A stretch of DNA of 64,000 nt from Ostreococcus lucimarinus. Lineage: Eukaryota. The notes beneath the pieces are model-generated. The model saw only the letters and a program-made list of their open reading frames with translations, did not search any database and was not told where the DNA came from. This document shows positions 2,620 to 58,751 of this stretch, piece by piece. How positions within the stretch are numbered: the stretch's first letter is position 1; each line of letters opens with the position of its first letter. Both the position numbers and the translations under genes were made by a program. Location of the stretch: assembly GCA_000092065.1 (NCBI GenBank), contig CP000598.1. The stretch is one strand, 5' to 3'.

Positions 2620-3166
2620 GAAGTGTTTTTGTCGTGCGTTCCTTATGCGGCAGGACTTAGAGGTGCGAATACTTGTGGATCCAAATGGGTAGATAAGGTA
2701 AAACCAGATGGTTCCCTTAAGTCTAGATTGGTAGTACAAGGATTCACCCAAGTTTGGTTGAAGGACTACCACGACACATTTAGTGCTTTTGCTTCCATGA
2801 CCACGTTTAGAATATTCATCAACGTTACGGCATCTTAAGATGGGACATCTTCACGAAAGATGTTTCCCAAGCTTAGACTTAGCTTAGAATTTAAGAGGAA
2901 CTTTTCAGGTCCAGCAGAAATTCACGAGTGTTCTAATCACTTCAACGTGATGTGAAGTCATATATCTTCAGAGTACATACAAGATTCCAGCAACCAGAGG
3001 TTGAATGAAGGTAATGTGAAGAGTGATGCGCTGCACACATTTCAAGAGTATCTCGAGAAGGTCGAAAGTGAGGAAACCCAACCTTTCAAAGGGATTGGTA
3101 CGTCTTCAGACTAGAGAAAGCTATAGCTCCTTGTAATCGACATCACTTATCGACGCACTAGGCCCG
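2620..3166 (+). mobile_element. Internally deleted remnant of the same Ty1/copia family: an RT fragment joined to the C-terminal end of pol, then a deleted 3' LTR.
   Basis: Translation CGSKWVDKVKPDGSLKSRLVVQGFTQVWLKDYHDTFSA (2677-2800) is near-identical to the RT segment of the intact pol at 53214-57212. Translation NFSGPAEIHECSNHFNVM...SDALHTFQEYLEKVESEETQPFKGIG (2900-3110) matches the pol C-terminus. Then come stop, the PPT-like ctagagaaagcta, and an LTR fragment ending at about 3166. Confidence 0.85.
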
Positions 3167-3527
3167 ATTGATCACAATTTATCAGGTATATCTCGCAGAA
3201 TCTGTCATTTATTATCAGGTGGAGGCAGCCAGATCACGCTGGTACACTGGTACCGAAAAAGCCTTCAGCAGGTGCTGCGGGCCTCTAGCCGGCGTTGCAT
3301 TGTCGCCCATCCTACCGCGTTGCACTGGTCGCTGTGAGCCGTCCGTGCGCGCGCCCACAGGTGTGCCGGTGGAATAACACCGATACCTTACCGACACACG
3401 TGCTCATCGATGTCGTCGCACGTAAAGAGCTTTTATTAAGACGAGTCGGCTGATTCTGCAACTCGCGGAACGAAACGTTTCGCGCACGAACGAGGGCTTT
3501 TTCGTCGCGAATTTCTCATCGCGCGGA

Positions 3528-9199: not shown

Positions 9200-9235
9200 C
9201 GCACCTCGAGGTGTCTATGAAGAACGCCGCCAGAG

Positions 9236-9448
9236 TACGATCTCCAGGCGTATTTCAGTCTGATGCTCGAAAATGGTGTACTTGCCGAGAACGCTTTGCT
9301 TCACAACTTTCTACCGGACCTCAATTTTGGTTTCACGTGTTCAAACTTTGAGCACCCAACGTCGACTAATATGGAAATTTCTGTCGATAGCGCTGACGAT
9401 CAAGATGTTCGCGCTTGGTTCGCGCGATGGTTTTACTCGCCGCTCTGA
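9236..9448 (+). pseudogene. Truncated duplicate of the 3' end of the 25206-25985 gene (segmental duplication, internal deletion).
   Basis: Translation MLENGVLAENALLHNFLPDLNFGFTCSNFEHPTSTNMEISVDS|DDQDVRAWFARWFYSPL is near-identical to the C-terminus of 25206-25985 minus about 45 aa. The downstream sequence continues the duplication into the GT90 gene. Confidence 0.8.
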
Positions 9449-9490
9449 AAGAATTCGGCAGTAGTTGTCGCTAGATCGTAATATTTAATA

Positions 9491-10696
9491 CTATACCATA
9501 CCTAAGGCTAGCTCATTCAGACGATGGGAAACGCCCTTGACGACGCGCTCGTACGTAAATTCTTGCATCAACGCGCGAGCATTTGCTGTGATATCACGCA
9601 ACTTCGTTAGCGATTCGCCATCGGTGTTCGCCACAATCTTCGTTTTTTCCACTAAATCGTGCAAATCTCCAGATATTCCGATGTAGTGTACTCCATCTAC
9701 CAGCTTGTCGCTGTAATAGTGCTTGAAATTTGACTTGACGAGGAACAGGACGCTCCCGCTTTCCATGCGCCAACGGTTTCCCCACGCGTCGACGTTTCCA
9801 TCGATTTCGAGGATACCTTTGTGCGTGATCCAATGCTGTTCCGATACGTGCGGGCTAATGCGTACATTTGTTTGTCCTTTACACGATTGTACCCTTCGCG
9901 TGATCTCGACGTCGAGCCAAGGAACATTTATGGATGATTGCACCGCTCGCACGCGCGGAAGTTCAACGCACGCGGTAACCCTTTCGTTCACGTCGACGCG
10001 AGCGGGTTCTTCTATTTCGCATTTTGTTGACATACCAGACGTCGAGCCTCTCCAGAATACGTCGGATTTGCGTTCATCAAACGGAATCTCACGTTCACGC
10101 AGATTCCGAAGCAACGGTTTGAACCCGTCGCGCTTGATGAAGTGGAAGTTTGGCGCGAGCACGACTGATTCGTCGGTGAAACAATCCACATTGATAGAAT
10201 GCGCCAGAATGAAAGTGTTCAAGGATTTCAATTCCCGTTTCAGCTCCCTCGGCATAGAGGCATCGTCGTCAATCACCCAAAGGAGTCGTAGAGCCACGTC
10301 GCTTCGTTCTCCTTGGTTCTGTCGCCGTTCCACAGCGACGTCTCGGAGAAACCGCAGGGCACTTTTAAAGTAGCTACGATTCAGCGGTTCACGCCTGCGT
10401 GCGACGAAGGTGTACGACGACGGCGAAGTCGCCTCCGGATGAATGGTGAAACACGCGACGTCTTTACCCAAGCCAAATGAACTGAACTTCAGCATTCGTT
10501 CCCTCACGTCGCCGCAGCAGTTCCGACAGTGCGTCCAAGCATCTTCTCGCATCCACATCTCGCTCAAATACTTCACCGAGCGCTCGCATCCGCGTGTTAT
10601 GAACTGCAAAGACAATACAAACTTCAACAACCAAAAAGCCAACAGCACGCGCAAACCGAGCCGACGTGCGGAGGTTTTCATGGCTGCGGTGGACAT
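9491..10696 (-). CDS. GT90-family glycosyltransferase (CAP10 / protein O-glucosyltransferase-like), membrane anchored. Copy 1.
   Basis: 401 aa. N-terminal TM LRVLLAFWLLKFVLSL; FWRGSTSGM; THKGILEIDGNVDAWGNRWRMESGSVLFLVKS...HYYSDKLVDGVHYIGISGDLHDLVEKTKI. These fit the Glyco_transf_90 pattern (FWRG ... KY.IDIDGN..S.R...L..SVV.K ... HY.P...DLSDL.EK). About 90% identical to 26028-27245. Confidence 0.75.
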   Translation of the reverse strand: MSTAAMKTSARRLGLRVLLAFWLLKFVLSLQFITRGCERSVKYLSEMWMREDAWTHCRNCCGDVRERMLKFSSFGLGKDVACFTIHPEATSPSSYTFVARRREPLNRSYFKSALRFLRDVAVERRQNQGERSDVALRLLWVIDDDASMPRELKRELKSLNTFILAHSINVDCFTDESVVLAPNFHFIKRDGFKPLLRNLREREIPFDERKSDVFWRGSTSGMSTKCEIEEPARVDVNERVTACVELPRVRAVQSSINVPWLDVEITRRVQSCKGQTNVRISPHVSEQHWITHKGILEIDGNVDAWGNRWRMESGSVLFLVKSNFKHYYSDKLVDGVHYIGISGDLHDLVEKTKIVANTDGESLTKLRDITANARALMQEFTYERVVKGVSHRLNELALGMV

Positions 10697-15522: not shown

Positions 15523-17895
15523 CTAATACCAGTAAAGACACTGCTGAAACATTTCCAACGTTTCCTCGTCGGCGTGAAAACGTTCCATACGTATTTCTTC
15601 GTGGCGATTTTTAACATCTTCAACCGCCGACCGTCGCCTGGAAGACAACGTCACGTAGTCGTAGTGCTTGGCGATAGTTTTCATCGCATCGTGACGTTTT
15701 GATCTTCTCTCGTTGATTTTGTCACTTCCAAGATTTGGGGCTTCGTGCTTTCCGGCTTGTTTCATGCTGCAAGCACAAAGTTCTAGATCGCCTCCATTTT
15801 CCGGTCGAGGGCATCTCGCGCGCTTTGTACCGATGCCCAAGGTTGTTTGCAATACAGCACTTATCCAAAAGTCTTCCGCATTGTAAAGTAAAGGAGGGGG
15901 CGCGCGAAACGCGGCCTGTAACCAGACCATCCTCCCAGCCCACAAATGACCTCCAAAATCGTATTCATCATCTTCGTCAAACGTATCAACCGGACCTTCT
16001 TTCCAGTGACCTCGCCAATCGAATTCTAAAAACTTTTCGTTCAAAAATCTACCATTTCTCGTCGCCAAAAAGCCTTCATCGACGACACGCAGCATGTTCT
16101 CAAAGTACCTCGATCCGAACATAACGTCATCATCCAAAACAATAAACGTTGCGTGTGGAGTCGTTTGTACGAACATCGGCGCGAGAAAGCGACCGTAATA
16201 ACCCGTTTCAACTTTAGAATGCACGTGATATACGTGTGGTGGAACACCCGACCAAGCCTCTGAGCTATTCCATCGATGAAGCGCGTCGCTAATATCCACG
16301 TGCTCCCCGTTTTGAACGACAACGATGGCAGTTCTTTTCGTCATCAGCGTCGTCTGTTTGCTTATCATTTTCATCACTTGTGTGATTGTTTTACGTTTCC
16401 AAACCGTCACGACGACCACATTCTCGTACGGCGCAGTGGAGTGTTCATTATGAAACGAAGACGATACTGGAAGTGTCTTTGGCGGCGGCGTTCTCAACAT
16501 TGTCTCGAGGATGCGCACGATGTTTCCAGCAGCATTCCCATCGCCATAAGTTTTCTTCGAGCCTGACATGGATCTATAAGAATCGGGATCTTTCAGCAAA
16601 GACGCCGCTTCGGTGTATATACTTTCTGCACCGTGACCAACTAGTTTTGCGGCGCCCGCGAGCACTCCTTCTGGTCTCTCTGTTGTGTCTCTGAGCACTA
16701 ACACCGGTTTTCCTAGAGTGACCGCTTCCTCTTGGATACCTCCCGAATCTGTCATGACGAAAAAACTCTCTTTCATCATGAATAATAAATCTGCATGGTC
16801 TAGAGGTGGTACTATCAGCAATCGCCGTAAGTGCGTAGTCGTTGGCGGCGCGTGGTCCGACTGTACAAGGCTGTGGAATGTATCAACGCCGAAGTGCTGT
16901 TCTGCTAAGTGCTTCACCATAGGGTTCAAGTGAATGGGATAAATCACGACGACGTCAGGGTATTCTTGCAGAAGCTTCTCTATGCTTGTGAAGATGTTGA
17001 GTATGGGTTCGCCAAGGTTTTCACGTCGATGAGCGGTGAGAAGTAACAGCCTCACGTCGCGCAGAGTGGATACAGTCTTCACGACTTTGGATAGCTCAAT
17101 CACTCGATCACTCGGTTCAGTCTTTAAAATTGCATATAGGGCATCGACAACAGTGTTACCGGTTGTAAACACATTCGTGCGTCTACCCTCGTCGTACAGA
17201 TTTTTTGCCGCGTGTTCGGTGGGTGCGAAGTGATACGTCGCCATAACTGAGATACACTGTCTATTGACTTCTTCGGGAAAGGGTGAGTAGATATCACGCG
17301 TACGAAGACCCGCTTCGATGTGTCCAACTGGTATTTTCAAGTAAAACGCCGCCAAAGACGTGATAAACGCTGTCGTTGTATCGCCCTGCACGAGCACCGC
17401 GTCTGGTTTTGACGAACGTAGCACGCCGTCTACCGCGCGCACCGCGCTCGATGTGAGCTCTGCGAGCTGTTGATTTGGCTTCATCAGCGCTAGCTCGTGT
17501 TGAATTTTATCTTGCAAGCTGAACTGGCGCAGAACTTGCTCAAGCATCTGTTTGTGTTGACCCGTGGAGATCAGTATCGCACTCAGAGTCGACGATCTGG
17601 CCACCGCTTGAATCACCGGAGCCATTTTCACAGCCTCTGGTCGCGTACCGAAGACAATCGCGATTTTGATTTCAGCAGAATAGGCCGTTCTGTCGAAACG
17701 TTCTGACTCGATATCTTTCATCGAGTCCAACGAGGGCGTGGGAGGATCGCCTTTTCGCGGCCAACCGGCATGTTTGTTCACCGATAGCAGGGCGGCGAAA
17801 CACAACGAGACTAGCGAGACTAACGAGACTAACGAGATCAGAGTTCTCGCTCTTCGGCGATCGAGGACGAGGATACTTTTTAACCGTCCCATCAA
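15523..17895 (-). CDS. Fusion protein: N-terminal signal anchor, a non-hydrolysing UDP-GlcNAc 2-epimerase (WecB/Epimerase_2) domain, and a C-terminal GT64-like (EXT C-terminal type, DDD) glycosyltransferase domain.
   Basis: 790 aa. TM LISLVSLVSLVSLCFAALL, encoded by a 9-nt x3 tandem cgagactaa. The epimerase domain has IAIVFGTRPEAVKMAPVI ... GHIEAGLRTRDIYSPFPEEVNRQCISVMATYHFAPTEHAAKNLYDEG, the canonical WecB motif. The C-terminal domain has FIVLDDDVMF ... FGGHLWAGRMVWL ... NAEDFWISAVL, co-linear with the GT64 motifs (vLSLDDD, LTgaAF.H, CEDI.MNFLV). Confidence 0.8.
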   Translation of the reverse strand: MMGRLKSILVLDRRRARTLISLVSLVSLVSLCFAALLSVNKHAGWPRKGDPPTPSLDSMKDIESERFDRTAYSAEIKIAIVFGTRPEAVKMAPVIQAVARSSTLSAILISTGQHKQMLEQVLRQFSLQDKIQHELALMKPNQQLAELTSSAVRAVDGVLRSSKPDAVLVQGDTTTAFITSLAAFYLKIPVGHIEAGLRTRDIYSPFPEEVNRQCISVMATYHFAPTEHAAKNLYDEGRRTNVFTTGNTVVDALYAILKTEPSDRVIELSKVVKTVSTLRDVRLLLLTAHRRENLGEPILNIFTSIEKLLQEYPDVVVIYPIHLNPMVKHLAEQHFGVDTFHSLVQSDHAPPTTTHLRRLLIVPPLDHADLLFMMKESFFVMTDSGGIQEEAVTLGKPVLVLRDTTERPEGVLAGAAKLVGHGAESIYTEAASLLKDPDSYRSMSGSKKTYGDGNAAGNIVRILETMLRTPPPKTLPVSSSFHNEHSTAPYENVVVVTVWKRKTITQVMKMISKQTTLMTKRTAIVVVQNGEHVDISDALHRWNSSEAWSGVPPHVYHVHSKVETGYYGRFLAPMFVQTTPHATFIVLDDDVMFGSRYFENMLRVVDEGFLATRNGRFLNEKFLEFDWRGHWKEGPVDTFDEDDEYDFGGHLWAGRMVWLQAAFRAPPPLLYNAEDFWISAVLQTTLGIGTKRARCPRPENGGDLELCACSMKQAGKHEAPNLGSDKINERRSKRHDAMKTIAKHYDYVTLSSRRRSAVEDVKNRHEEIRMERFHADEETLEMFQQCLYWY

Positions 17896-18312: not shown

Positions 18313-18764
18313 TATCAGAAACAGAAACCTCCCGGCGACGTTTGTTCGCGAGCAAAGAAACGGCAACCTCACGAGCATCTTTGGCCACTTGAGCGCGCCA
18401 GTCTTCGTCGTCGCAAGCGGGAGCCGTCGTTGCCTCTGCTCCTCCCAGCGAGGCTGAAGATCGCTGAGAAGCCTTCTTACAACCTTTCCGTGCCGTCGAC
18501 ACGGTCGGAGACGCGCTTCGGCGCGCGCGAGGGTGCGTCATACGCGACAGAATCTGGCCCAAAAGTTAACGTGCCCATCGAGCTCCAACGGTCGTGTTCC
18601 GTCAACACCCACGCACAGAATTCAAACTTAAACGGTCGGATATCACGATACGCGGAAACATCGGTTGACTCCGCGCCGCCCGGACGCGCGCGCGGCGCGA
18701 AGTGGCGCGCGACGGCGCGACAAACGTCGACGTTAATTAAATTCATTATTTTACCCTCATACAT

Positions 18765-18860
18765 TATTTTCGAAATGCGAGCTATACCTAATACTATGCG
18801 ATCAATCGGGCCTGCGTCAATAAGTGATGATGATTACAAGTAGCTATCATTGATTAGTAC
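18765..18860. repeat. Divergent LTR-like fragment related to the copia LTR.
   Basis: gctatacctaatactatgcgatcaatcgggcctgcgtcaataagtgatgatgattacaa parallels the LTR start gctataccttatatgatggtgagcaatcgggcctagtgcgtcgataagtgatgataattacaa. Confidence 0.55.
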
Positions 18861-18882
18861 TCGATGGGCACGTTAACTTTTC

Positions 18883-19470: not shown

Positions 19471-19954
19471 CCAAAAATAAACACAAGATAGTTTCGTCCT
19501 CGGAGCGACCTTCGGTGTAAAAGAATACAGACTGAGAGACTCACAGAACTAGCCTCTGACAGAACGTGGAGGGTAGAGGGGTCACCAGTGCTTTAACGAT
19601 CGAAAGACTTTGTCGAAGTGCCGCGTGTACATGAATTTCTGTGGTTTTATTCTCCCCGTTATCTCTGACGCGTGTCGGATCAATACCAGGTATGATATAT
19701 GGGTGAGTAATTTGTACATGAATACGGGAAGCTCGCCTAGGTTACCCCCGAAGGAGTAATCACTTTCGCGCCCCGCCGAACCGCCGTTCGTTTTCTGCGC
19801 GCCGGTGCGAGTGGCGTCAAAAGGCGCGGCGTCGCGTGGACATCGCGCGCAGCACTCGCGAACGCCCTCGAGGCGCGCGCGGTATTCGCGAGCATGTCGT
19901 CGAGATAATCTGCGAAAATCTAGACGCGCTCGACCGAGACGCCCGTCCGCCCGC

Positions 19955-21144
19955 ATGCGCATCCTTCTCACCGGTGGCGCCGGCTTCATCGGCTCGCACG
20001 TCGCCGAGCGCCTCGCGTCGAGGCATCCCGAGTACACGGTGCGCGCACGATTTCGACCCCGTGCGCGTGCGTCGAACAACGCACGGACTTTGCACCCATC
20101 TCTCGCGCGAACGACTGACCGCGAACGACTCGTCGCGCTCGACAGATTGTCATCCTGGACAAGCTCGACTATTGCTCGAGCTTGAAAAATCTCGAGCGCG
20201 CGAAAGAATGCGCGAACGTGCGGTTCGTCAAGGGCGATGTGCGTTCGTTCGATTTATTGAGTTACGTCTTGCAAAGCGAGCGCATCGACACCGTCATGCA
20301 CTTCGCCGCGCAGAGTCACGTGGACAACTCTTTCGGGAACTCGTACGAGTTCACGAAGAATAACATCGAGGGCACGCACGCGTTACTCGAGGCGTGCGTG
20401 CGAGCGCAGAAGACCGAAATTCGACGATTCCTGCACGTGTCCACGGATGAGGTATACGGGGAAAATCTCATGGATTCAAACACCGAGCACGCGTCGCTCC
20501 TGACGCCCACCAACCCGTACGCCGCGACCAAGGCGGGCGCGGAGATGCTCGTCATGGCGTATGGACGCTCGTACGGACTACCGTACATCATCACTCGCGG
20601 AAACAACGTGTATGGGCCGAATCAGTATCCAGAGAAGGCGATTCCAAAGTTTTCAATCCTCGCGAAACGCGGGGAAAAGATTTCGATACACGGCGACGGC
20701 GACGCGACGCGTTCGTACATGCACGTTGACGATGCGTCTTCGGCGTTCGATGTCATTCTCCACCGCGGGACGACGGCGCAGATTTATAACATCGGCTCGC
20801 GCGAAGAGCGGACGATCTTGTCCGTCGCTCGGGATGTCTGTAAGCTCCTCGATCGCGACCCGGAAACGACCATCGAGCACGTGAGCGATCGAGCCTTCAA
20901 CGACCGAAGATATTTCATCGATTGCTCAAAGCTTTTAGCGCTCGGATGGCGACAAGAAAAGTCCTGGGACGTCGGTCTCGCGGAAACCGTGCGTTGGTAC
21001 TCGAATAACGACTTGAGCGCCTACTGGGGCGAATTCTCACCTGCGTTGCGCCCGCACCCTTCGGCGAGCGCGGACGGTCGACGACGATCGCTCGAGTTTG
21101 ATTTCACAAACGAGCTTGATGATTGCACGACACTGGCTTTGTAA
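19955..21144 (+). CDS. dTDP/UDP-glucose 4,6-dehydratase (RmlB/RHM-N-domain type, extended SDR). Copy 1 has two exons: 19955-20038 and 20146-21144.
   Basis: Exon 1 is MRILLTGGAGFIGSHVAERLASRHPEYT. Exon 2 is IVILDKLDYCSSLKNLE...NVRFVKGDV...HFAAQSHVDNSF...YGPNQYPEKAIPKF...GDGDATRSYMHVDD, the textbook 4,6-dehydratase motifs including YxxxK and the YGPNQYPEKLIPKF box. A 107-nt GT...AG intron shifts the frame, so splicing is required. About 97% identical to copy 2 at 36260-37450. Confidence 0.8.
20039..20145 (+). other. Spliceosomal intron (GTGCGC...GACAG), 107 nt, in dehydratase copy 1.
   Basis: The insertion relative to all RmlB homologues lies exactly between HPEYT and IVVLDKL. It has GT/AG borders. 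Its length differs by 1 nt between the two paralogs while the flanking exons are conserved. Confidence 0.7.
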
Positions 21145-21149
21145 GTGTG

Positions 21150-21700
21150 AGTGATTGGAACTCCAGATTGTGGTTCAAATTGGTCCAATCCCGAGTCGAC
21201 GAAAGTCTTTTTCCAAGTTTTTTTCCAAGAATTATTTGCGTACATCATCAGCTTGCACTCGCCTCCCGGTTTGAGAGTCATGAAATATCCTTCACGGCGG
21301 GTTGTACATCGGCGATGTGATGCAGAACTCCGAAACTAAAAAGAGGATCAAAATGGTCGTGCATGAATTCATCGGTCTGTATATCTGCAACGCGCACCTC
21401 ACCATTGAGTTTGAACAGTTTGAGTCGCTTCTCAGCGAGTTCTACACTTCGCAAGGAAACGTCGATGCCTGTGTAAACCGCGCCAGCTTCAGTAAAACTT
21501 TGTGTCGCGGTCCCTATACCGCAACCAACCTCGAGAACAGATTGTTTTCGTACGCGTCGAGACTTGCGAATGCCAAAGTGTGGTTCTCGACGAAATATTT
21601 ACGCCGCGTCACTTCTTCAAAGTATTCCTTCGAGCCGAATGTTACAAGGGCGATCATCGTAAAACGTTTTCACGAACTCATTCGACTCGCGCATGGCGTC
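21150..21700 (-). pseudogene. Class I SAM-dependent methyltransferase remnant with frameshifts.
   Basis: The minus-strand translation gives LEVGCGIGTATQSF (motif I) ... FDLIFSFGVLHHIADVQPAVKDIS, then after a 1-nt frame slip MTLKPGGECKLMMYA (motif II/III region). Upstream is in a third frame. No intact ORF exists. Confidence 0.45.
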
Positions 21701-25205: not shown

Positions 25206-25985
25206 ATGGGCACGAGAACGGACATCGTTTCGAGAGTGTGCGATGCGACGTCGTTACCGAAAAATGTTTACACGAGAAACGGCGGAAAAGCGACGAAAAA
25301 TAGTAAGTGGGCGTCGCTTTCGCGAGCTAAACTCGATGTGGTGGAGGACTTGATGCTTCACGGAGTCGGACCCGTGGTCTGGATCGACCTCGACACGCTC
25401 GTTTTCGTGGACTTGGCGCGCGCGTTTCAGCGCGGCGCGTCGACGTGGTTAGTAGGTTATCAGAGAGGAATGCAGTGTACCGGCTTGAAGAGTTGCGTTG
25501 GGTCACACTTTCGTTCCGTGCGTCCGGAGTTTGACGTGCTCGGCGACTTGTGGTCGCTCGATTTAGCCGCAATAGAGAAAGTGAGAGATTACGAACGCCG
25601 ATGGGTGTCGTCGCGATGGGTAAGAAAGCCGCCAAAGTACGATCTCCAGGCGTATTTCAGTCTCATGCTCGAAAATGGTGTACTGGCCGAGAACGTTTTG
25701 CTTCACAACATTCTACCGGACCTCAATTTTGGTTTCACGTGCTCAAACTTTGAGCACCCAACGTCGACTAATATGGAAATTTCTGTCGATAGCGACGACG
25801 CACAGCGTCTGAGGTGCCCTATTCCAAAAGGCGTGAAAATGTCACCGCGAGTAGGAACTCTTTCGTTCACCGCGTGGTCGTTTCAAAAGATGTTTTTGGA
25901 TGAAGAAAAGCCGACGTTTGATTCGCTTTCTGACGATCAAGATGTTCGCGCTTGGTTCGCGCGATGGTTTTACTCGCCGCTCTGA
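25206..25985 (+). CDS. Stand-alone paralog of the DxD-type N-terminal domain of 6042-8318. Probably 5'-truncated.
   Basis: 259 aa and co-linear with residues ~150-400 of the 6042-8318 protein. The homology continues upstream of the annotated Met (DVVPLETT vs GVIPLKTT) until an in-frame TGA at 25155-25157. So either this copy is truncated or the call starts internally. Confidence 0.5.
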   Translation: MGTRTDIVSRVCDATSLPKNVYTRNGGKATKNSKWASLSRAKLDVVEDLMLHGVGPVVWIDLDTLVFVDLARAFQRGASTWLVGYQRGMQCTGLKSCVGSHFRSVRPEFDVLGDLWSLDLAAIEKVRDYERRWVSSRWVRKPPKYDLQAYFSLMLENGVLAENVLLHNILPDLNFGFTCSNFEHPTSTNMEISVDSDDAQRLRCPIPKGVKMSPRVGTLSFTAWSFQKMFLDEEKPTFDSLSDDQDVRAWFARWFYSPL

Positions 25986-26027
25986 AAGAATTCGGCAGTA
26001 GTTGTCGCTAGATCGTAATATTTAATA

Positions 26028-27245
26028 CTATACCATACCTAAGGCGAGCTCATTCAGACGATGGGAAACGCCCTTGACGACGCGCTCGTACGTAAATTCT
26101 TGCATCAACGCGCGAGCATTTGCTGTGATATCACGCAACTTCGTTAGCGATTCGCCATCGGTGTTCGTGATAATCTTCGTTTTTTCCACTAAATCGTGCA
26201 AATCTCCAGATATTCCGATGTAATGTATCCCATCTACCAGCTTGTCGCTGTAATAGTGCTTGAAGTTTGACTTGACGAGGAACAGGACGCTCCCGCTTTC
26301 CATGCGCCAACGGTTTCCCCACGCGTCGACGTTTCCGTCGATTTCGAGGATACCTTTGTGCGTGATCCAATGCTGTTCCGATACGCGCGGGCTAATACGT
26401 ACATTCTTTTGTCCTCTACACGATTGTACCCTTCGCGTGATCTCGAGGTCGAGCCAAGGAACATTTATGGATGATTGCACCGCTCGCACGCGCGGAAGTT
26501 TAACGCACGCGGTAACCCTTTCGTTCCCGTCGACGCGAGTGGACTCTTCTACTTCGCATTTTGTTGACATACCGGACGTCGAGCCTCTCCAGAACACGTC
26601 GGATTTGCGTTCATCGAACGGAATCTCGCGTTCACGCAGGTTCCGAAGGAACAGTTTGAACCCGTCGCGCTTGATGAAGTGGAAGTTTGGCGCGAGCACG
26701 ACTGATTCGTCGGTGAAACAATTCGCATTGATAGAGTGCGCCAGGATGAAAACATTCAAGGATTTCAGCTCCCGTTGCAGCTTCCTCGGTAGAGACGCGT
26801 CGTCGTCAATCACCCATAGGAGTCGTATAGCTACGCCGCTTCGTTCTCCGCGATTCTTCCGCTGTTCCGAGGCGACGTCTCGGAGAAACCGCAGGGCACT
26901 TTTAAAGTAGCTACGATTCAGCGGTTGACGCCTACGTGCGACGAAGGTGTACGAAGACGGGGAAGATGCTTCCGGATGAAAGGTGAAACACGCGACGTCT
27001 TTGCCCAAGCCACGTAAACTGGATTTCAGCATTCGTTCCCTCACGTCGCCGCAGCAGTTCCGACAGTGCGTCCAAGCGTCTTCTCGTATCCAAAGTGCAC
27101 TGAAACTACCCAGCAAGTCCGCGATCGTGCGCGTGACGATCATGTATGATGACGAGAAACAAAAGCAGAGCAATAGAAGCAAACCAACTCGTCGCGCTCG
27201 TGTCTTCGCCATCGGCCCGCGTGTACGAAAGGAACAAACGTCCAA
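26028..27245 (-). CDS. GT90-family glycosyltransferase (CAP10/POGLUT-like). Copy 2.
   Basis: 405 aa with the same motifs as 9491-10696 (FWRGSTSGM, ILEIDGNVDAWGNRWRMESGSVLFLVKS, HYIGISGDLHDLVEKTKI). N-terminal TM RVGLLLLLCFCFSSSYMIV. Confidence 0.75.
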   Translation of the reverse strand: MDVCSFRTRGPMAKTRARRVGLLLLLCFCFSSSYMIVTRTIADLLGSFSALWIREDAWTHCRNCCGDVRERMLKSSLRGLGKDVACFTFHPEASSPSSYTFVARRRQPLNRSYFKSALRFLRDVASEQRKNRGERSGVAIRLLWVIDDDASLPRKLQRELKSLNVFILAHSINANCFTDESVVLAPNFHFIKRDGFKLFLRNLREREIPFDERKSDVFWRGSTSGMSTKCEVEESTRVDGNERVTACVKLPRVRAVQSSINVPWLDLEITRRVQSCRGQKNVRISPRVSEQHWITHKGILEIDGNVDAWGNRWRMESGSVLFLVKSNFKHYYSDKLVDGIHYIGISGDLHDLVEKTKIITNTDGESLTKLRDITANARALMQEFTYERVVKGVSHRLNELALGMV

Positions 27246-30800: not shown

Positions 30801-31075
30801 CGCGCGCGCGGCGCAGAGTGCGCGTCGACGAGCCGAGCAAATGTCTCGCGCCGCGCCGCGCACGTTTTGTGTGCGTCCATCTCATCACGTGATGCCCTAT
30901 AAATTCGTAAAATACGATACTTGCGACGTACAAGACGAACGGTGTTTTTATAAATTGTGGCGACGTTTTCGCCCAGGGATATTTCGCGCCCGTCGCGTCG
31001 CCGCGGTCATGGCGGTCGCGCGCTCGTTACGTACCGACGCCGTCGCGCGCGATGTCACAGGCGAACGGAAAGCGC
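30801..31075. repeat. Direct repeat copy 1 (about 275 bp, about 90% identical to 31402-31690), downstream of the cold-shock gene.
   Basis: gcgcgcggcgcagagtgcgcgtcgacgagccgagcaaatgtctcgcgccgcgccgcgcacgttttgtgtgcgtccatctcatcacgtgat...ttataaattgtggcgacgtttt... recurs 601 bp downstream. Confidence 0.85.
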
Positions 31076-31372
31076 GGGCTCCGCGGTACCGGTCTTCGCC
31101 TCGCCCTTGAGTAACCGGTTCCGTTGCCGCCGCTTCGGCGCCCCTTTCACCGCCGCGCCGTTCGGCCCGGTCACGTTCACGGCCACGGGCCTCCCGTCGG
31201 CGTTGCTGACTTCGTACTCAACCTCCTCGTCCTCCCACGCCGACCGGAACCCCGCGCGCGAGATCCCCGTTTGGTGCACGAATATCTCTTCGCTTCCGTC
31301 GTGCGGTGTGATGAACCCGAATCCTTTCGTGACGTTGAACCATTTCACCTTCCCGCGCGCGCGCGCGCCCAT
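31055..31372 (-). CDS. Cold-shock-domain protein (CspA/Y-box type CSD).
   Basis: MGARARGKVKWFNVTKGFGFITPHDGSEEIFVHQTGI...EGEEVEYEVSNADGRPVAVNVTGPNG. RNP1 (KGFGFI) and RNP2 (IFVHQ) motifs are present, followed by a short basic tail. Confidence 0.8.
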   Translation of the reverse strand: MGARARGKVKWFNVTKGFGFITPHDGSEEIFVHQTGISRAGFRSAWEDEEVEYEVSNADGRPVAVNVTGPNGAAVKGAPKRRQRNRLLKGEAKTGTAEPALSVRL

Positions 31373-31401
31373 CGCGCGCGGCGACGTCGCGTCGCCCCAC
31401 G

Positions 31402-31690
31402 CGCGCGCGGCGCGGAGTGCGCGTCGACGAGCCGAGCAAATGTCTCGCGCCGCGCCGCGCACGTTTTGTGTGCGTCCATCTCATCACGTGATTGTCTAGA
31501 AATTCGTAAAGTACGACACTTGCGACGTACAAGACGAACGGTGTTTTTATAAATTGTGGCGACGTTTTTCGCCCACCTGGGCCGCGGTGGGATATTTCGC
31601 GCCCGTCGCGCGCCGCGGTCGCGCGCTCGTTACGTACCGACGCGGTCGCAGACGAACGGGAATGTCGCAGACGAACGGGAAACGCGATGG
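31402..31690. repeat. Direct repeat copy 2. It contains the 5' region and start codon of the ColD-like fusion gene.
   Basis: See copy 1. The ATG at 31662 lies inside this repeat. Confidence 0.85.
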
Positions 31691-33908
31691 CGACGGCACA
31701 GGCGACGCCGCGCGCGGGGACTGGAAGGCCGTCGTCGCCGATGAGTACGCGCGCCGCAGCGGCGTGTACGCCGCGCCCGACGAAACCTCGTTCCCGCTCA
31801 TCGCGTCGAGCATTTTTTCGGAAGAAATCATCGCCGCCGTGGACTCCATGCTCAGCGGACAGCTCACTATGGCAAATAACGTTCGCGAATTCGAGCAGGC
31901 GTTCGCAAAGTACGTCGGGGCGCCGTTCGCGGTGATGTGCAACTCTGGCAGCTCGGCGAATCTTCTCGCGCTGGCGGCGTTGACGAATCACCTGCGTTCG
32001 AAAAAGCTCTGCGCCGGGGACGAAGTGTTGATCCCGGCGGTGTGCTGGTCCACGAGTTTGTGGCCGATCGTACAAATGGGCCTGATTCCAGTGTTCGTGG
32101 ACGTGGACGTGGCGACGATGAACGTGGACTTGGACGACTTGGAAGCGAGAATCACGGATAAGACGCGAGGCGTGCTCGCGGTGCACGTCCTCGGCAACAT
32201 GTGCGATATGGACAGGCTGATGGATATTTGTGCCCGTCGCGACTTGCTCCTCGTCGAAGACACGTGCGAATCGCTGGGAAGCACGTACGGCGGGAAGTGC
32301 GTGGGGACGTTTGGGAGTTTTGGCTCGTACAGTTTTTACTTTTCCCACCACATCACCACGGGCGAAGGTGGAATGGTCGTGTGTCAGACTCAAGAAGACG
32401 CCGATCTCGTCCGATGCTTGCGCGCGCACGGCTGGACGCGCGAGCTTTCTAACAAAGATGAGTTACACGAACAAAACGCGCACATAGATTCGCGTTTCAT
32501 GTTCGTCAACGTCGGGTACAACTTGCGCCCCATGGAAATCTCTGGGGCTGTCGGGAAGTGCCAGCTTCTTCGTCTGGACTCGATGAACGCCAACAGAAAA
32601 GAAAACCGCGAGCGCTTGCTTCGAGCTCTGCAGTCGCACGATAAATGGAACGATCAATTCCGCTTCCCGGTCGCCCCGAATGCGTCCGCCGACCCGGCGT
32701 GGTTCGGCTTCGTGGCCGTGCTTCGACGCGATCTGCAGAAGCGCCTGCCGACGTATTTGGAATTTCTCACCAGACACAAGATTGAAAATCGTCCAATCAT
32801 CAGCGGTAACTTTGTGCACCAGCCGGCGATCAAAACTTTGGGATTGAGCGTTGACCCGAACGGATATCCTGGCTCGGACGAGCTGGGCACGTGCGGGTTT
32901 TTCATCGGCGTGCACACGTATCGCCTGTCGGATGCGCAGATCTCGTACCTCGCCGACACCATGCTCGCCTTCGACTTTGACTGCGCCGTGAACAGAAAAG
33001 TCGTGCTCGTGACTGGTGGCAGCGGTCTCGTCGGTCGAGCGCTCAAAGAACACGTCAAAACATCGGCGAACACAAACGATTCATGGATTTTTACATCTTC
33101 CAAAGATGCTGATTTGTGCTCTTACGACGAGACGAAGAGGCTCTTCGAGCGATATCGCCCGACGCACGTCATTCACCTCGCGGTGAAGCTCATGGCGGGC
33201 GGCGACATGTCGAAAATGGCGGCGAGTCTCATTCAGGATAACAACGCGATTAACGCTAATGTTCTTCGTTGCGCGCACGAAATCGACTGCGACAAGGTTG
33301 TCTCTGTCTTATCTTCTTTCGCTTACCCGAAAGACGTGAGTTTGCCGATCACAGAAAAGCGACTGCACGACGGTCCTTGCCATCCGTTGTATGAGTCTTA
33401 CGGTTCGTCAAAGCGTAACCTCGAAATTCTATCGCGCGCCTACCGCGCGCAACATGGTAGGAAGTTCGTCACCGTCATTCCGAGCAATATATTTGGAACC
33501 ATATCGCAACTGCGCGAGGGTGGTCCGGTCATCGACGCGCTCATGAGCAAGGCTGCGCAATCCGCGGCTACAGGTTCTGAATTCACATGCAGAGGCACCG
33601 GTGCGCCGTGCCGTCAGTTCTGCTACGCACCCGATCTAGCGCGCGTGCTCATTTGGTCTTTGGAACATTACGACGAAGAAGAGCCAATAAATGTCGCTGG
33701 GGAAGAGATCAGCATACGCGCCGTGGCGGAGCTCATCGCCAACATGTTCGGCGTCGAGAAACGCTTGTCGTTTGACGCGTCGTTTCCAGATGGGCCCATG
33801 TACCGCACGCTAAGCGATGATAAGCTCCGACGTCTGTATGAAGGTTACGAGCAAACCGATTTCGAAACGGCACTTCGAAGCGTCGTCGCACGCGTCATCA
33901 ACGCGTAA
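31662..33908 (+). CDS. Bifunctional fusion: an N-terminal DegT/ColD-type PMP-dependent GDP-4-keto-6-deoxy-D-mannose 3-dehydratase-like domain, and a C-terminal GDP-L-fucose synthase/ColC-like (GMER) 3,5-epimerase/4-reductase domain.
   Basis: 748 aa from the ATG at 31662 (the track ORF starts at a TTG). The N-domain FPLIASSIFSEEIIAAVDSMLSGQLTMANNVREFEQAFAKYVGAPFAVMCNSGSSANLLA ... SFYFSHHITTGEGGMVV is DegT-family, with His-His where aminotransferases have the Schiff-base Lys. That substitution is the ColD/E1 dehydratase hallmark, and the His falls at about 189 of the domain. The C-domain KVVLVTGGSGLVGRALKEH...SSKDADLCSYDETKRLFERYRPTHVIHLAV...YGSSKRNLEI...VIPSNIFGT...GTGAPCRQFCYAPDLARV is co-linear with GDP-fucose synthase, including YxxxK. 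Confidence 0.85.
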   Translation: MSQTNGKRDGDGTGDAARGDWKAVVADEYARRSGVYAAPDETSFPLIASSIFSEEIIAAVDSMLSGQLTMANNVREFEQAFAKYVGAPFAVMCNSGSSANLLALAALTNHLRSKKLCAGDEVLIPAVCWSTSLWPIVQMGLIPVFVDVDVATMNVDLDDLEARITDKTRGVLAVHVLGNMCDMDRLMDICARRDLLLVEDTCESLGSTYGGKCVGTFGSFGSYSFYFSHHITTGEGGMVVCQTQEDADLVRCLRAHGWTRELSNKDELHEQNAHIDSRFMFVNVGYNLRPMEISGAVGKCQLLRLDSMNANRKENRERLLRALQSHDKWNDQFRFPVAPNASADPAWFGFVAVLRRDLQKRLPTYLEFLTRHKIENRPIISGNFVHQPAIKTLGLSVDPNGYPGSDELGTCGFFIGVHTYRLSDAQISYLADTMLAFDFDCAVNRKVVLVTGGSGLVGRALKEHVKTSANTNDSWIFTSSKDADLCSYDETKRLFERYRPTHVIHLAVKLMAGGDMSKMAASLIQDNNAINANVLRCAHEIDCDKVVSVLSSFAYPKDVSLPITEKRLHDGPCHPLYESYGSSKRNLEILSRAYRAQHGRKFVTVIPSNIFGTISQLREGGPVIDALMSKAAQSAATGSEFTCRGTGAPCRQFCYAPDLARVLIWSLEHYDEEEPINVAGEEISIRAVAELIANMFGVEKRLSFDASFPDGPMYRTLSDDKLRRLYEGYEQTDFETALRSVVARVINA

Positions 33909-34940: not shown

Positions 34941-36259
34941 CGCGACGGCTGCGTGTCGTCCGCCGTCGCGCGCGATCGCGTCGTCCGGTTTCGCGTCGAC
35001 TCGAGGCCCGCCGTCTCGCGAGCCGCGCCGACGACTGACTCGCGCGCGTTTTGAATTCGTCCGTCGATTTCCGGAATTCCAAAATTCCACGTCAAAATTT
35101 TGCGCCGCGCCGCGTCCGGCTGGCGCCGCACCACTCCGCACGGGCGATCGCGCCCGGAAAGCGATCGGATCGTCGGGAAACTGATCAATAAACGACGTGC
35201 AATATTTTGATAGCATTAATATATTATTAAATATGATAATTCAGATCCGTCTGGTCATCGCAAACCCTGGATCCTTCGGACTGTGCTGATTCGACCCCCT
35301 GGAAATTTCAGACAGTTTCCCAAACGAGGCCCGTTTTTTCAAACGCCACCAGTGAGTTTTTTGAGCCCATTTGACCGACCGTGACTCAAGAACGACCCCC
35401 TCATTGTGTACATTCACTACTCTACGCGCGCGACGCGCCCGCGAACGCGCGAGAAAAGCGCACGGCGCGGTCGTACACGAACTTTTTTCTCTTCGCAGCG
35501 ACTTTTACGCGTCGAGACGTCCCAGCGACGGCTGGGGATCGCCATTTGATGCGATTTTGGACGATTTTGGCATTCGAGTCCCACGTGCTAAGTTGAGTCA
35601 TGACTCGTCAAATTTAGTAAAATTCAACACGCTTTTGCGGCGCCGTGAACGCGCACTTCGAAATAAAAACAAATTCACATCGCGTGAATCATTTGAGGTA
35701 AGCTTGAACGTTCAGAATACTCCGTGAAACTGCCTTGAACACCTTCGATTAAGATGTCAAACGTGTCGAATTTGGTACTTTTTTGTGAATTTGGGATATT
35801 TCACGCCGCGTTATCTCTCAATCGCGCGCTTTCCCCGCACGTCGGTTGACCTACACGCTCGTGAAATGTCTGAATGACCCCCTGTTTCAGGGGATCTGGA
35901 AACTGTCTGAAATTTCCAGGGGGTCGAATCCGCAAAGTCCCGGAAATTTCGAAAATTTGGATTCCTGCGCAGCGGGTGTCCCGCGATGATGATCGAAATC
36001 GTCTCGCATCATCGTATTCAGAGATGTATGAAATCTATGAAAATACGAAATGTGATTTAAATCAGTTTTTCCCGACGCCGCACCGACGTTCGTTTCTGCG
36101 CGCGCCGGTGCGCGCGGCGCCAATAGGCGAGGCGTCGCGTCGAGATCTCGTGAGCGTCGTCATCGAGCGCCCTCGAGGCGCGCGCGGTATTCGCGAGCAT
36201 GTCGTCGAGATAATCTCCGAAAATCTAGACGCGCTCGACCGAGACGCCCGTCCGCCCGC

Positions 36260-37450
36260 ATGCGCATCCTTCTCACCGGTGGCGCCGGCTTCATCGGCTC
36301 GCACGTCGCCGAGCGCCTCGCGTCGAGGCATCCCGAGTACACGGTGCGCGCACGATTTCGACCACGTGTGCGTGCGTCGAACAACGCACGGACTTTGCAC
36401 CCATCTCTCGCGCGAACGACTGACCGCGAACGACTCGTCGCGCTCGGACAGATTGTCGTCCTGGACAAGCTCGACTATTGCTCGAGCTTGAAAAATCTCG
36501 AACGCGCGAAAGAATGCGCGAACGTGCGGTTCGTCAAGGGCGATGTGCGTTCGTTCGATTTATTGAGTTACGTCTTGCAAAGCGAGCGCATCGACACCGT
36601 CGTGCACTTCGCCGCGCAGAGTCACGTGGACAACTCTTTCGGGAACTCGTACGAGTTCACGAAGAATAACATCGAGGGCACGCACGCGTTACTCGAGGCG
36701 TGCGTGCGAGCGCAGACGACCGAAATTCGACGATTCCTGCACGTGTCCACGGATGAGGTATACGGGGAAAATCTCATGGATTCAAACACCGAGCACGCGG
36801 CGCTCCTGACGCCCACCAACCCGTACGCCGCGACCAAGGCGGGCGCGGAGATGCTCGTCATGGCGTACGGACGCTCGTACGGATTGCCGTACATCATCAC
36901 TCGCGGAAACAACGTGTACGGGCCGAATCAGTATCCAGAGAAGGCGATTCCAAAGTTTTCAATCCTCGCGAAACGCGGGGAAAAGATTTCTATACACGGC
37001 GACGGCGACGTGACGCGTTCGTACATGCACGTCGACGATGCGGGTTCGGCGTTCGACGTCATTCTCCACCGCGGAACGCCGGCGCAGATTTATAACATCG
37101 GCTCGCGCGAAGAACGGACGATCTTGTCCGTCGCTCGGGATGTCTGTAAGCTCCTCGATCGCGACCCGGAAACGACCATCGAGCACGTGAGCGATCGAGC
37201 CTTCAACGACCGAAGATATTTCATCGATTGCTCAAAGCTTTTAGCGCTCGGATGGCGACAAGAAAAGTCCTGGGACGTCGGTCTCGCGGAAACCGTGCGT
37301 TGGTACTCGAATAACGATTTGAGCGCGTACTGGGGCGAATTCTCACCCGCGTTGCGCCCGCACCCTTCGGCGAGCGCGGATGGGCGACGACGATCGCTCG
37401 AGTTTGATTTCACGAATGATTCTGACGATCGCGCGACACCGACTTTGTAA
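36260..37450 (+). CDS. dTDP/UDP-glucose 4,6-dehydratase, copy 2. Here the 108-nt intron equivalent (36344-36451) is in frame and lacks stops.
   Basis: 396-aa continuous ORF. Apart from the 36-aa insert VRARFRPRVRASNNARTLHPSLARTTDRERLVALGQ between HPEYT and IVVLDKL it matches RmlB-type dehydratases end to end. About 97% nt identity to 19955-21144. Confidence 0.85.
   Translation: MRILLTGGAGFIGSHVAERLASRHPEYTVRARFRPRVRASNNARTLHPSLARTTDRERLVALGQIVVLDKLDYCSSLKNLERAKECANVRFVKGDVRSFDLLSYVLQSERIDTVVHFAAQSHVDNSFGNSYEFTKNNIEGTHALLEACVRAQTTEIRRFLHVSTDEVYGENLMDSNTEHAALLTPTNPYAATKAGAEMLVMAYGRSYGLPYIITRGNNVYGPNQYPEKAIPKFSILAKRGEKISIHGDGDVTRSYMHVDDAGSAFDVILHRGTPAQIYNIGSREERTILSVARDVCKLLDRDPETTIEHVSDRAFNDRRYFIDCSKLLALGWRQEKSWDVGLAETVRWYSNNDLSAYWGEFSPALRPHPSASADGRRRSLEFDFTNDSDDRATPTL
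36344..36451 (+). other. Intron (GT...AG, 108 nt) of dehydratase copy 2. It is in frame, so a retained-intron isoform would still be translatable.
   Basis: Positional homolog of the frame-breaking 107-nt intron in copy 1. The 36 extra residues are absent from the dehydratase family consensus. Confidence 0.65.
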
Positions 37451-42594: not shown

Positions 42595-43395
42595 ATGCGC
42601 GTGCTCGTGCTCGGGTCGAGCGGGTTGATCGGCGCACCCTTGGTGGCTCGTCTTCGTCGCGCCGGTCACGATGTCACGGAATGGGACGTCGCCATGGATC
42701 GCGCGCACGATTTAACGGACGCCGCGAACGTGCCTGGCGCGCGCGACGCGATCGAGTCGAGTGATTTCGTCTTCTTTCTCGCCTTTGACGTCGGCGGCGC
42801 AAAGTACATCAGTACTCCCACCGCGAGTTTCATCCATCGAAACAGTCTCTTGATGGCGAACACGTTTAGTTTACTGCACGGCAAGCGGTTCGTTTTCGCC
42901 TCGAGCACGATGTCAAACATGGACGTCCCTTACGGCACTTTAAAACGTCTCGGCGAGCACTACACGAGCGTGCTCTCTGGAATCTCTGTGCGATTCTGGA
43001 ACGTCTACGGTCCTCAAAAGTACGGCGAGAGATCGCACGTGATCACCGATTTTATTCACAAGCTTCGAACGACCGGTTCGATTACCATGATGACTTCTGG
43101 CGCAGAAAAGCGCCAGTTTCTGCACACAGAAGACTGCGCGCGGTGTTTGGAAACAATCGCCGCGCACTACGACGAGATGCCACCCGTAGTAGACGTCACG
43201 AGTTTCGAGTGGACGACTGTTAGGGAGCTGGCTGAGTTGCTTTGCGATGACGTGGTCGCTCGTAACGACAACCGAGACAGCCACACGAAGTCGAACGAAC
43301 CGAGTCCGTTCATCCTTAGTTACTGGCGCCCCGCGATAAGTTTACGAGAAGGCATCGCGCAACTGCTCGCAGAATCAAGGACGGCGAAACGTTAA
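42595..43395 (+). CDS. NAD(P)-dependent epimerase/reductase of the extended SDR family (RmlD/4-ketoreductase-like).
   Basis: About 266 aa from the ATG at 42595. MRVLVLGSSGLIGAPLVARLRRAGHDV is the Rossmann GxxGxxG. PYGTLKRLGEHY is the YxxxK catalytic dyad. The long upstream part of track ORF 41659-43395 is antisense to the GT32 gene and is spurious. Confidence 0.65.
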   Translation: MRVLVLGSSGLIGAPLVARLRRAGHDVTEWDVAMDRAHDLTDAANVPGARDAIESSDFVFFLAFDVGGAKYISTPTASFIHRNSLLMANTFSLLHGKRFVFASSTMSNMDVPYGTLKRLGEHYTSVLSGISVRFWNVYGPQKYGERSHVITDFIHKLRTTGSITMMTSGAEKRQFLHTEDCARCLETIAAHYDEMPPVVDVTSFEWTTVRELAELLCDDVVARNDNRDSHTKSNEPSPFILSYWRPAISLREGIAQLLAESRTAKR

Positions 43396-46300: not shown

Positions 46301-46559
46301 CTACACTTCGTTACTGCGATGCGACGTAAACTTCCCGTAGGACAGCGACGTGTCGCGCGAAAATCTTCGCGAGCGCCGAATGAAGATTTCGCCGCGATGC
46401 GTCTCTCGGCCGAAGGATGAGCGGAAGTGTATATCACGCTCGCAGGCGCGATATGTTGTCGAAACTGCGCGGGGCGAAAATTTCACCTGTTGAATTAATT
46501 TCACCGCGTAAAATTTAAGGGCGAGTAAGAGATAGAAATTCCTTGTCGGAATAGCGAGT

Positions 46560-47170
46560 AATTTTCCAATTTTCGCTATTCTTTTTTTTCAAAAGAGATG
46601 GGCCGGAATAAAAACGCTCCGTGCCAACCTCGCGACGCGTTGCGCGCGAACGACGCGCGCTCAACGACGAAAGATCAACGCATGACGTGAGCGAGACACA
46701 ATTTCACGAGCGTGGCGTCGCGACTCGACCGATATCACGGTGGTGCGCGCTCATTCAATTTGAGGTGCTTTTCCAAAAGAGTTAGAACATGATGTTACAA
46801 CAACGACGCACGGCGCGCGCGACTGCCCGCTATCGACTATGAAACGGTTGAAAACGATGCGCGCGCGTTACTGTTAATTAATGCGCGTCACGGCTTCCAC
46901 CATCGCGCGCGGCACTGGCGCGGCGACGGTGACGCTTCGAATTGTTTTTCAAAAGAGATAGCCGGAAGAGCGTTGTCGGCATAAGACCCCCTAAAAATTA
47001 ACTCGTCACGTGACGAGTCGTCGCTATGCGAACAAGATCCTTGTCCGCGTAAATCGGCCCGATTTACGCGGATAAAAAGCTTGTCCGCATAAGATTTACG
47101 CGGATAAGCCATCTCTTATGAAAAAAAACGGCCCTTATCCGCGTAAATCGCCGATTCTATTTTCGAATTT
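46560..47170. repeat. Cluster of short inverted/direct repeats including a perfect palindrome (tccgcgtaaatcgg cc cgatttacgcgga) and ttttcaaaagagat..gccgga direct repeats. Possibly a MITE-like element or a regulatory hairpin array.
   Basis: The motif ccgcgtaaat / atttacgcgg occurs at least 4 times in both orientations within 150 bp (47040-47160). ttttcaaaagagatgggccggaa (46574) recurs as tttttcaaaagagatagccggaa (46941). Confidence 0.5.
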
Positions 47171-47242
47171 CGCATCTCTTAGTCGGCCTAACGCGGTTAA
47201 CGTTCATCTAGACCGACGGTCGGGTATGTCCTGGTAAAACCG

Positions 47243-53023: not shown

Positions 53024-53196
53024 TGCGAGCTATACCTTATATGATGGTGAGCAATCGGGCCTAGTGCGTCGATAAGTGATGATAATTACAATCAGTTGTG
53101 GTTAGTTCATTAATGAGTGTTAACTCGTCAATTAGTCCCGCTAGGTTACTAGGGGAAGCTACTATATTTCATATTTTACTCTTCAGATTTCTAACA
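53024..53196 (-). repeat. 3' LTR (in element orientation) of the copia element.
   Basis: Identical to 58579-58751. Confidence 0.9.
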
Positions 53197-53213
53197 CACC
53201 TCCTTAGCTTTCT

Positions 53214-58578: not shown

Positions 58579-58751
58579 TGCGAGCTATACCTTATATGAT
58601 GGTGAGCAATCGGGCCTAGTGCGTCGATAAGTGATGATAATTACAATCAGTTGTGGTTAGTTCATTAATGAGTGTTAACTCGTCAATTAGTCCCGCTAGG
58701 TTACTAGGGGAAGCTACTATATTTCATATTTTACTCTTCAGATTTCTAACA
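58579..58751 (-). repeat. 5' LTR (in element orientation) of the copia element.
   Basis: Identical to 53024-53196. Confidence 0.9.

Follow-up and report, generated by a model that had tools for sequence, protein, structure and literature searches.

One-nucleotide length polymorphism in an ordinary spliceosomal intron of duplicated dehydratase genes near a telomere of Ostreococcus lucimarinus

The window analyzed here, 64,000 nucleotides (nt) of contig CP000598.1 of the Ostreococcus lucimarinus assembly GCA_000092065.1, is the telomeric end of chromosome 18 of strain CCE9901, a small outlier chromosome, and contains two copies of a gene for a nucleoside diphosphate (NDP)-glucose 4,6-dehydratase, both on the plus strand and each interrupted by a short GT..AG segment, 107 nt long in copy 1 and 108 nt long in copy 2. 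We consider it highly probable that these are two functional paralogues, each with an ordinary phase-0 intron that is spliced out normally to yield an enzyme of 360 amino acids (aa), and that the 1-nt length difference is a neutral non-coding indel, the in-frame state of the longer intron being incidental. The feature, first noticed in an original prediction made from the sequence alone, is real and was correctly described there; it is also ordinary and already annotated.

The two copies had been placed about 16 kb apart at about 97% identity, and both values are borne out: the start codons lie 16,305 nt apart, and 36 differences among the 1190 nt from ATG to stop amount to 97.0% identity. The duplicated block recovered by self-BLAST (19774-21144 against 36076-37450; 95.8% identity over 1377 nt) extends from ~180 nt before the ATG through the stop codon. 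In copy 1, the upstream region with the 5' untranslated region (UTR) occupies 19774-19954, from the first position of the block, and is followed by exon 1 (19955-20038; ATG at 19955; 28 codons, MRILLTGGAGFIGSHVAERLASRHPEYT, with the GxxGxxG motif inside), the intron (20039-20145; 107 nt, phase 0, GTGCGC...ACTGAC...CAG) and exon 2 (20146-21144; 332 codons and the stop, with the catalytic motifs STDEVYG and YAATK). The corresponding parts of copy 2 are the upstream region and 5' UTR delimited by the self-BLAST block (36076-36259), exon 1 (36260-36343; ATG at 36260), the intron (36344-36451; 108 nt, phase 0, no in-frame stop) and exon 2 (36452-37450; 332 codons and the stop). The region 19774-19954 is 15% diverged from its counterpart, mostly within 19774-19862; exon 1 is identical in the two copies, and the exons contain no indels. 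Single-nucleotide differences that tell the copies apart include those at 20059 and 20064, in the intron, and at 20152 and 20196. Across codons 1-348, the synonymous divergence (dS) is 0.064 and the ratio of nonsynonymous to synonymous divergence (dN/dS) is 0.16; the last 12 codons are strongly diverged. Purifying selection acts on the exons of both copies, which appear to be paralogous, functional genes, each of which would encode a 360-aa enzyme after splicing. The possibility that copy 1 is a pseudogene was rejected given its intact exons, the low dN/dS and the fact that the 107-nt allele is widespread.

The spliced product of copy 1 is an exact, full-length match to XP_001422283.1 (= XP_001422349.1; ABP00600/ABP00666) and that of copy 2 to XP_001422288.1 (ABP00605), so the intron is already part of the published gene models. 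The copy 1 protein is held under two GenBank/RefSeq accession pairs (ABP00600/XP_001422283 and ABP00666/XP_001422349), a possible sign that the same protein is also encoded at a third locus, perhaps on chromosome 18 beyond the 64 kb analyzed. Copy-1-like genes with flanks unlike the window are present on two of the environmental contigs (L016 and L019; L numbers denote contigs throughout).

The GT..AG insertion between HPEYT and IV(I/V)LDKL that the original prediction had pointed out is an ordinary U2-type spliceosomal intron, located after codon 28 in both copies and endowed with the canonical Ostreococcus signals. Both copies have the 5' splice site GTGCGC, with G at position +5, and termini GT..AG; the branch-site consensus ACTGAC lies at 20114-20119 in copy 1 (branch A at 20118, 27 nt from the 3' end) and at 36419-36424 in copy 2 (branch A 28 nt from the 3' end), both on the plus strand, and the sole AG within the intron is the 3' splice site itself. 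Among O. tauri introns outside the mating-type region, 91.6% have G at +5 and 75.7% have an exact ACTRAC no more than 50 nt from the 3' splice site (PMC13298755 supplement). Two substitutions and an additional G in copy 2 (G at 20141 versus GG at 36446-36447) are all that separates the two intron sequences. As had been read from the sequence, this leaves copy 1 frame-breaking and copy 2 in frame without a stop: read-through of copy 1 encounters a stop at 20183-20185, after 76 codons, whereas copy 2 reads through as an uninterrupted 396-aa open reading frame (ORF) with a 36-residue insert. The hypothetical insert peptide is VRARFRPRVRASNNARTLHPSLARTTDRERLVALGQ, and its tryptic peptides would include TLHPSLAR and LVALGQIVVLDK. 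Homologues had been said to be contiguous at this site, and the alignments, which comprise the matches to the Protein Data Bank (PDB) and 10 proteins reaching to plant RHM, indeed contain no residues there. In the window self-BLAST, the intron matches only the two paralogues, unlike a mobile intron (introner element, group I or group II). A search of the whole window with Rfam at gathering thresholds returned no match, and a structured RNA (ribozyme or riboswitch) was dismissed on this basis as an explanation of the segment.

Exons joined without the intron are found in environmental sequences. A cDNA-like contig of 1229 nt (L013) consists of 124 nt of 5' UTR, beginning at the equivalent of 19831, the coding sequence and 22 nt of 3' UTR, and its exon-exon junction is exact, with GAGTACACG directly joined to ATTGTCGTC (|ATTGTC) at the equivalent of 20038|20146. 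This contig is a mosaic, copy-1-like in its 5' part and copy-2-like in its 3' part, and may have resulted from chimeric assembly or represent a recombinant allele. In a related lineage, the 63-nt intron of contig L111 is absent from three independent contigs of ~1.3 kb (L108-L110), all of which share their 5' end. L013, whose sample type is unconfirmed, and L108-L110 together suggest that the intron is removed precisely in the mature mRNA. The mean retention of O. tauri introns outside the mating-type region is ~1% (PMC13298755 supplement), and we infer that retention of the dehydratase intron in vivo is low. In the O. lucimarinus expressed sequence tag paper (PMC2367439), 'intron retention' has a purely evolutionary meaning, and the paper contains no data on the dehydratase genes.

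The intron is shared, at the same position, with more distant relatives. A 125-nt frame-breaking intron with the same position and phase after codon 28 is present in L007, in a homologue that sits among housekeeping genes (S26e, DnaJ, RAI1). The 63-nt intron of L111 (P0006 lineage; GTGCGC..ACTAAC..CAG) lies at the same codon boundary, in a gene with ORC2 and glutamate kinase as neighbours, and for P0205 a version of 81 nt, in frame and stop-free, was inferred. A lineage of 75-77% identity (P0004, P0005, P0166) lacks the intron at this site. The notional insert peptides encoded by the 108-, 81- and 63-nt versions have no residues in common other than those that the splice signals impose, namely, V-R (GTGCG), T-D or T-N (ACTRAC) and Q (CAG).

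The length of the intron also varies among wild alleles. An unbiased search of metagenome contigs for a 24-nt pattern from exon 1 returned 12 contigs, 8 with the 107-nt intron and 4 with the 108-nt intron. The independent occurrence of the 107-nt form on 8 contigs excludes the scenario, named at the outset as the one that would overturn the splicing interpretation, in which the length of copy 1 reflects a sequencing error. When alleles were assigned to loci by mapping the contig flanks to the window, with the copy-2 context recognized at no less than 99% identity, the copy-2 locus was found to harbor introns of 108 nt (L014, L018, L020, L022, L027), 107 nt (L017, L024, L025) and 93 nt (L026). 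The frame state therefore varies within this locus and is not a property of copy 2, and accordingly nothing suggests a selected retention isoform. Indels of 1 nt and 14 nt separate the intron alleles, as in sequence under no reading-frame constraint, and the substitutions among alleles inside the intron are nearly all amino-acid-changing in the frame of the insert. Furthermore, an in-frame stop is missing from 35.5% of the shuffles of the 108-nt sequence (n=20,000); as one length in three is divisible by three, the a priori chance of a stop-free intron of such length is ~0.12. One allele, L024, has the copy-1 intron haplotype within copy-2 flanks; because of this haplotype, the identical exon 1 and the mosaic structure of L013, the sequences suggest gene conversion between the paralogues. 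The 93-nt intron of L026 (Ga0494211_0040244), which is of the copy-2 type, has a 14-nt deletion between direct repeats CGAACGACT that removes ACTGAC and leaves the intron in frame and stop-free; the allele, known from this single contig, could be poorly spliced, or the deletion could have arisen during assembly. We know of no description of the 107/108 frame difference or of its population polymorphism, no search having been aimed at them.

Two sets of observations weigh against an interpretation based on normal splicing and chance. In principle, L013 (sample 3300009608, metatranscriptome status unconfirmed) could be an intron-less genomic allele rather than a spliced transcript, and stop-free introns with a length divisible by three occur in several lineages or alleles (108, 93, 81 and 63 nt), slightly above the naive expectation. 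The latter observation could be taken to indicate regulated retention, whereby copy 2 and the other alleles of this kind would give rise to a second functional isoform with a loop of 21-36 residues between helix alpha-1 and strand beta-2, whereas the retained transcripts of copy 1, with their premature stop, would be degraded, so that the paralogues would differ post-transcriptionally. Such a scheme is compatible with the in-frame, stop-free state of the 108-nt intron, with the other versions of the same kind (93 nt in L026, 63 nt in P0006/L111 and the inferred 81 nt in P0205) and with the loss of the ACTGAC branch site from L026, which remains in frame after its 14-nt deletion. Moreover, AlphaFold2 modelling of the 396-aa product places the insert between helix 11-23 and strand 65-69 as a coil whose predicted local distance difference test score (pLDDT) is below 50, whereas the remainder adopts the fold of the short-chain dehydrogenases/reductases (SDR), the mean pLDDT being 78.5; the 36-residue insert is thus predicted to be disordered, and the remaining fold, according to the model, could accommodate the loop. 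Nevertheless, we consider regulated retention to be highly improbable. The frame state is polymorphic at a single locus, with the 107-nt introns of L017, L024 and L025 in the copy-2 context; the peptides of the different lineages have in common only the residues that the splice signals dictate; and the substitutions within the intron would nearly all change amino acids in that frame. The splice signals are strong and close to consensus, in a genus in which the O. tauri introns outside the mating-type region are retained at ~1% (PMC13298755), and the absence of a stop, with its chance of 0.355, calls for no special explanation. In addition, retrieval via prokaryote-style ORF calls favours in-frame, stop-free introns, so the set of such introns is biased. 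Even slightly less probable, in our judgment, is the more specific proposal that the recurrence of these introns is not due to chance and that retention produces a stable alternative isoform in which a disordered, basic loop lies next to the NAD-binding strand beta-2. If this were the case, the 107/108 polymorphism would act, on an outlier chromosome associated with virus resistance, as a toggle between an isoform degraded by nonsense-mediated decay (NMD) and a translatable one.

We assign still lower probability, close to nil, to the alternative under which the 108-nt segment is coding and contributes 36 residues to the mature protein, copy 1 being a frameshifted pseudogene or the product of a sequencing error. 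The uninterrupted 396-aa ORF of copy 2 and of many metagenome contigs, annotated as such by prokaryote-style gene callers, invites this reading, but it is at odds with the 8 independent contigs that carry the 107-nt form, with the intact exons of copy 1 and their dN/dS, with the spliced contig L013, with the full complement of intron signals inside the segment and with the predicted disorder of the insert, and no homologue, those with solved structures included, has residues at the site. This alternative is already effectively refuted. An equally negligible likelihood attaches to an origin of the copies by recent acquisition from a giant virus (prasinovirus) or by retroposition, as opposed to DNA duplication of a host gene. 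An alien origin has been proposed for genes of the outlier chromosome (PMC3491373), and the best solved relative of the dehydratase is a Mimivirus enzyme. However, a single-protein scan of the IMG/VR viral contigs found no relative, and the matches in the profile scan do not exceed 54% identity, a result that led us to reject a viral origin. By contrast, cellular relatives are 69-89% identical, and two of them, P0003 (89%) and P0006 (69%), are located in housekeeping neighbourhoods and have the intron at the same position; retroposition is excluded because the intron and ~180 nt of upstream sequence are kept in both copies. The identity of the cellular relatives, the shared intron position and the lack of any viral match above 54% jointly point to duplication of a host gene at the DNA level.

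Taken together, these results are best explained by a simple scenario of duplication followed by normal splicing. Under this scenario, the intron after codon 28 would have been passed on with the gene when the DNA was duplicated, and normal splicing would remove it from both copies to give the 360-aa enzyme; the 108-nt version would be divisible by three and stop-free by chance, with no demonstrated function, and the genes would form part of a hypervariable small outlier chromosome rich in sugar genes. Taken alone, this result carries little weight, but it confirms that splicing is correctly represented in the published models of two dehydratase genes of the outlier chromosome. The intron position shared with homologues in housekeeping neighbourhoods additionally argues for DNA duplication of a host gene and against viral or foreign acquisition. 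Finally, the 107- and 108-nt alleles, whose near-identical transcripts differ in whether retention introduces a premature stop, could be used as a natural pair of reporters in studies of intron retention and NMD in the Mamiellales, a subject now attracting attention (PMC13298755).

The placement of the window at the very end of the chromosome follows from a perfect (CCCTAAA)n telomere repeat of 21 copies at positions 1-148, which produces self-matches with a 7-nt period in the self-BLAST; copies 1 and 2 of the dehydratase lie 20 kb and 36 kb, respectively, from this telomere. Chromosome 18 has been described as a 149-kb molecule with 53% GC and 78 ORFs, of which 16 are for sugar metabolism (PMC3491373). 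The spliced proteins match entries on a record of 149,386 bp, and in this size, in GC (~52%) and in gene content the sequence agrees with that description, the ORFs of the window including GT90, GT61 and DXD glycosyltransferases, FkbM methyltransferases, a UDP-GlcNAc 2-epimerase fusion, a CAP59-type mannosyltransferase and sugar epimerases. In a 790-aa ORF on the minus strand (15523-17895), residues 97-464 form a complete UDP-GlcNAc 2-epimerase domain (E 9e-107), and the ~320 residues after it match nothing in Pfam; this ORF may be another sugar-enzyme fusion. A scan for bacterial promoters and terminators in the window gave matches at chance level, which are of no relevance to a eukaryote.

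A second pair of paralogues, GT90 glycosyltransferases at 9220-10696 and 25622-27245 (93.8% nt and 85% aa identity), is offset by ~16.5 kb, close to the 16.3 kb of the dehydratase pair, with unrelated genes in between; an old segmental duplication, overwritten in the meantime, may have left the two pairs behind. A single clean tandem segmental duplication of ~12 kb was rejected as the source of the copies, given that only these two pairs are similar and the intervening genes are unrelated; if such a duplication occurred, it has been heavily overwritten since.

Several further observations concern the fluidity of this region. A dispersed repeat occurs as two 100% identical 176-nt copies (53024-53199 and 58579-58754), with related copies at 2893-3197 and 18775-18847 in the window and on four environmental contigs (L015 2140-2316, L019 469-628, L021 905-1048, L023 6237-6340); in several environmental contigs it stands directly upstream of dehydratase gene copies. 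It may serve as a recombination substrate or may be a small mobile element that helps to spread the dehydratase cassette over the outlier chromosome. The two arms of a perfect 22-nt inverted repeat, AAAAGTTAACGTGCCCATCGAG, at 18561-18582 and 18860-18881, flank a stretch of 277 nt with one dispersed-repeat copy inside; this architecture, which resembles a miniature inverted-repeat transposable element, is the only one of its kind in the window, where none would be expected by chance alone. In L014 and L022, environmental contigs otherwise more than 99.7% identical to the window, ~670 bp at 46519-47188 are absent, and L001 and L006 differ structurally from the window around 30.8-31.7 kb, a part of the window that contains a direct repeat of 85% identity (30801-31076 and 31400-31686). 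These differences are examples of the structural hypervariability of the chromosome in the wild.

The enzyme encoded by the two genes can be assigned to the extended-SDR NDP-hexose 4,6-dehydratases (RmlB, UGD and RHM-N). It is matched by the Pfam profiles GDP_Man_Dehyd and Epimerase (E 2e-58 for the latter), and the sequence GGAGFIG (GxxGxxG), which exon 1 encodes as residues 7-13 in both copies, is invariant in the 10-protein alignment. In RmlB enzymology, the dehydratase subclass is defined by a catalytic Thr, an Asp-Glu pair (TDE) and YxxxK. The residues T128-D129-E130 and Y153...K157 are present in both copies and invariant across the 10 homologues. The score against TIGR01181, the model of bacterial dTDP-glucose 4,6-dehydratase (dTDP, deoxythymidine diphosphate), is 346.9 bits; it falls slightly short of the curated equivalog cut-off (365.1), which fits a eukaryotic or viral subfamily of the UDP-glucose type (UDP, uridine diphosphate) and not a true RmlB. 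The original assignment as a dTDP/UDP-glucose 4,6-dehydratase thus stands as an NDP-glucose 4,6-dehydratase, closer to the UDP-glucose enzymes of eukaryotes and giant viruses than to bacterial RmlB. Judging from these sequence features, it is most probably a single-domain NDP-glucose 4,6-dehydratase specific for UDP-glucose, and we infer a role in the variation of cell-surface glycans.

The SDR gene at 42595-43395 (266 aa), originally suggested as a partner in a 6-deoxyhexose branch, shows only a weak and partial likeness to GDP-fucose synthase (E 9e-10). The branch itself, possibly a dideoxy- or amino-sugar branch, is plausible. An ORF on the plus strand at 31554-33908, 2.3 kb upstream of copy 2, fuses a pyridoxal phosphate-dependent enzyme of the RfbH/DegT type (NF011936, E 9e-91) to an SDR epimerase/reductase domain resembling GDP-fucose synthase (E 3e-44), an unusual fusion for a eukaryote. 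On sequence grounds, this fusion appears to be the more convincing partner and could act downstream on the 4-keto-6-deoxy sugar.

Comparison with known systems places both the genes and their intron among familiar forms. The annotated genes (XP_001422283.1 and XP_001422288.1) have no structural difference from the spliced products derived here. The dehydratase intron resembles the canonical non-mating-type introns of Ostreococcus (Condon et al. 2026, PMC13298755) in its GT..AG termini, G at +5 and ACTRAC, and no differing feature was found; that study covered four species, O. lucimarinus not among them, and gave the small outlier chromosome no separate treatment. With bacterial RmlB, whose profile is matched in full length (E 9.8e-104, positions 1-316 of 321), the Ostreococcus protein has the SDR fold in common, but it is eukaryotic and its gene contains an intron. 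Mimivirus R141, reportedly specific for UDP-glucose, is the product of a viral gene and the best solved relative (PDB 6vlo, deposited as 'putative dTDP-D-glucose 4,6-dehydratase'; E 4.4e-86); residues 2-316 align, without a gap at the intron site, and the catalytic motifs are shared. Among proteins, the homologues with names that a search returned are the N-terminal domains of plant RHM1-3, at 58-62% identity over ~92% of the query. The plant RHM enzymes are trifunctional (UDP-glucose 4,6-dehydratase, 3,5-epimerase and 4-reductase), with the epimerase/reductase in the C-terminal part, whereas the Ostreococcus genes encode a single domain of 360 aa, so that any epimerase/reductase must be separately encoded.

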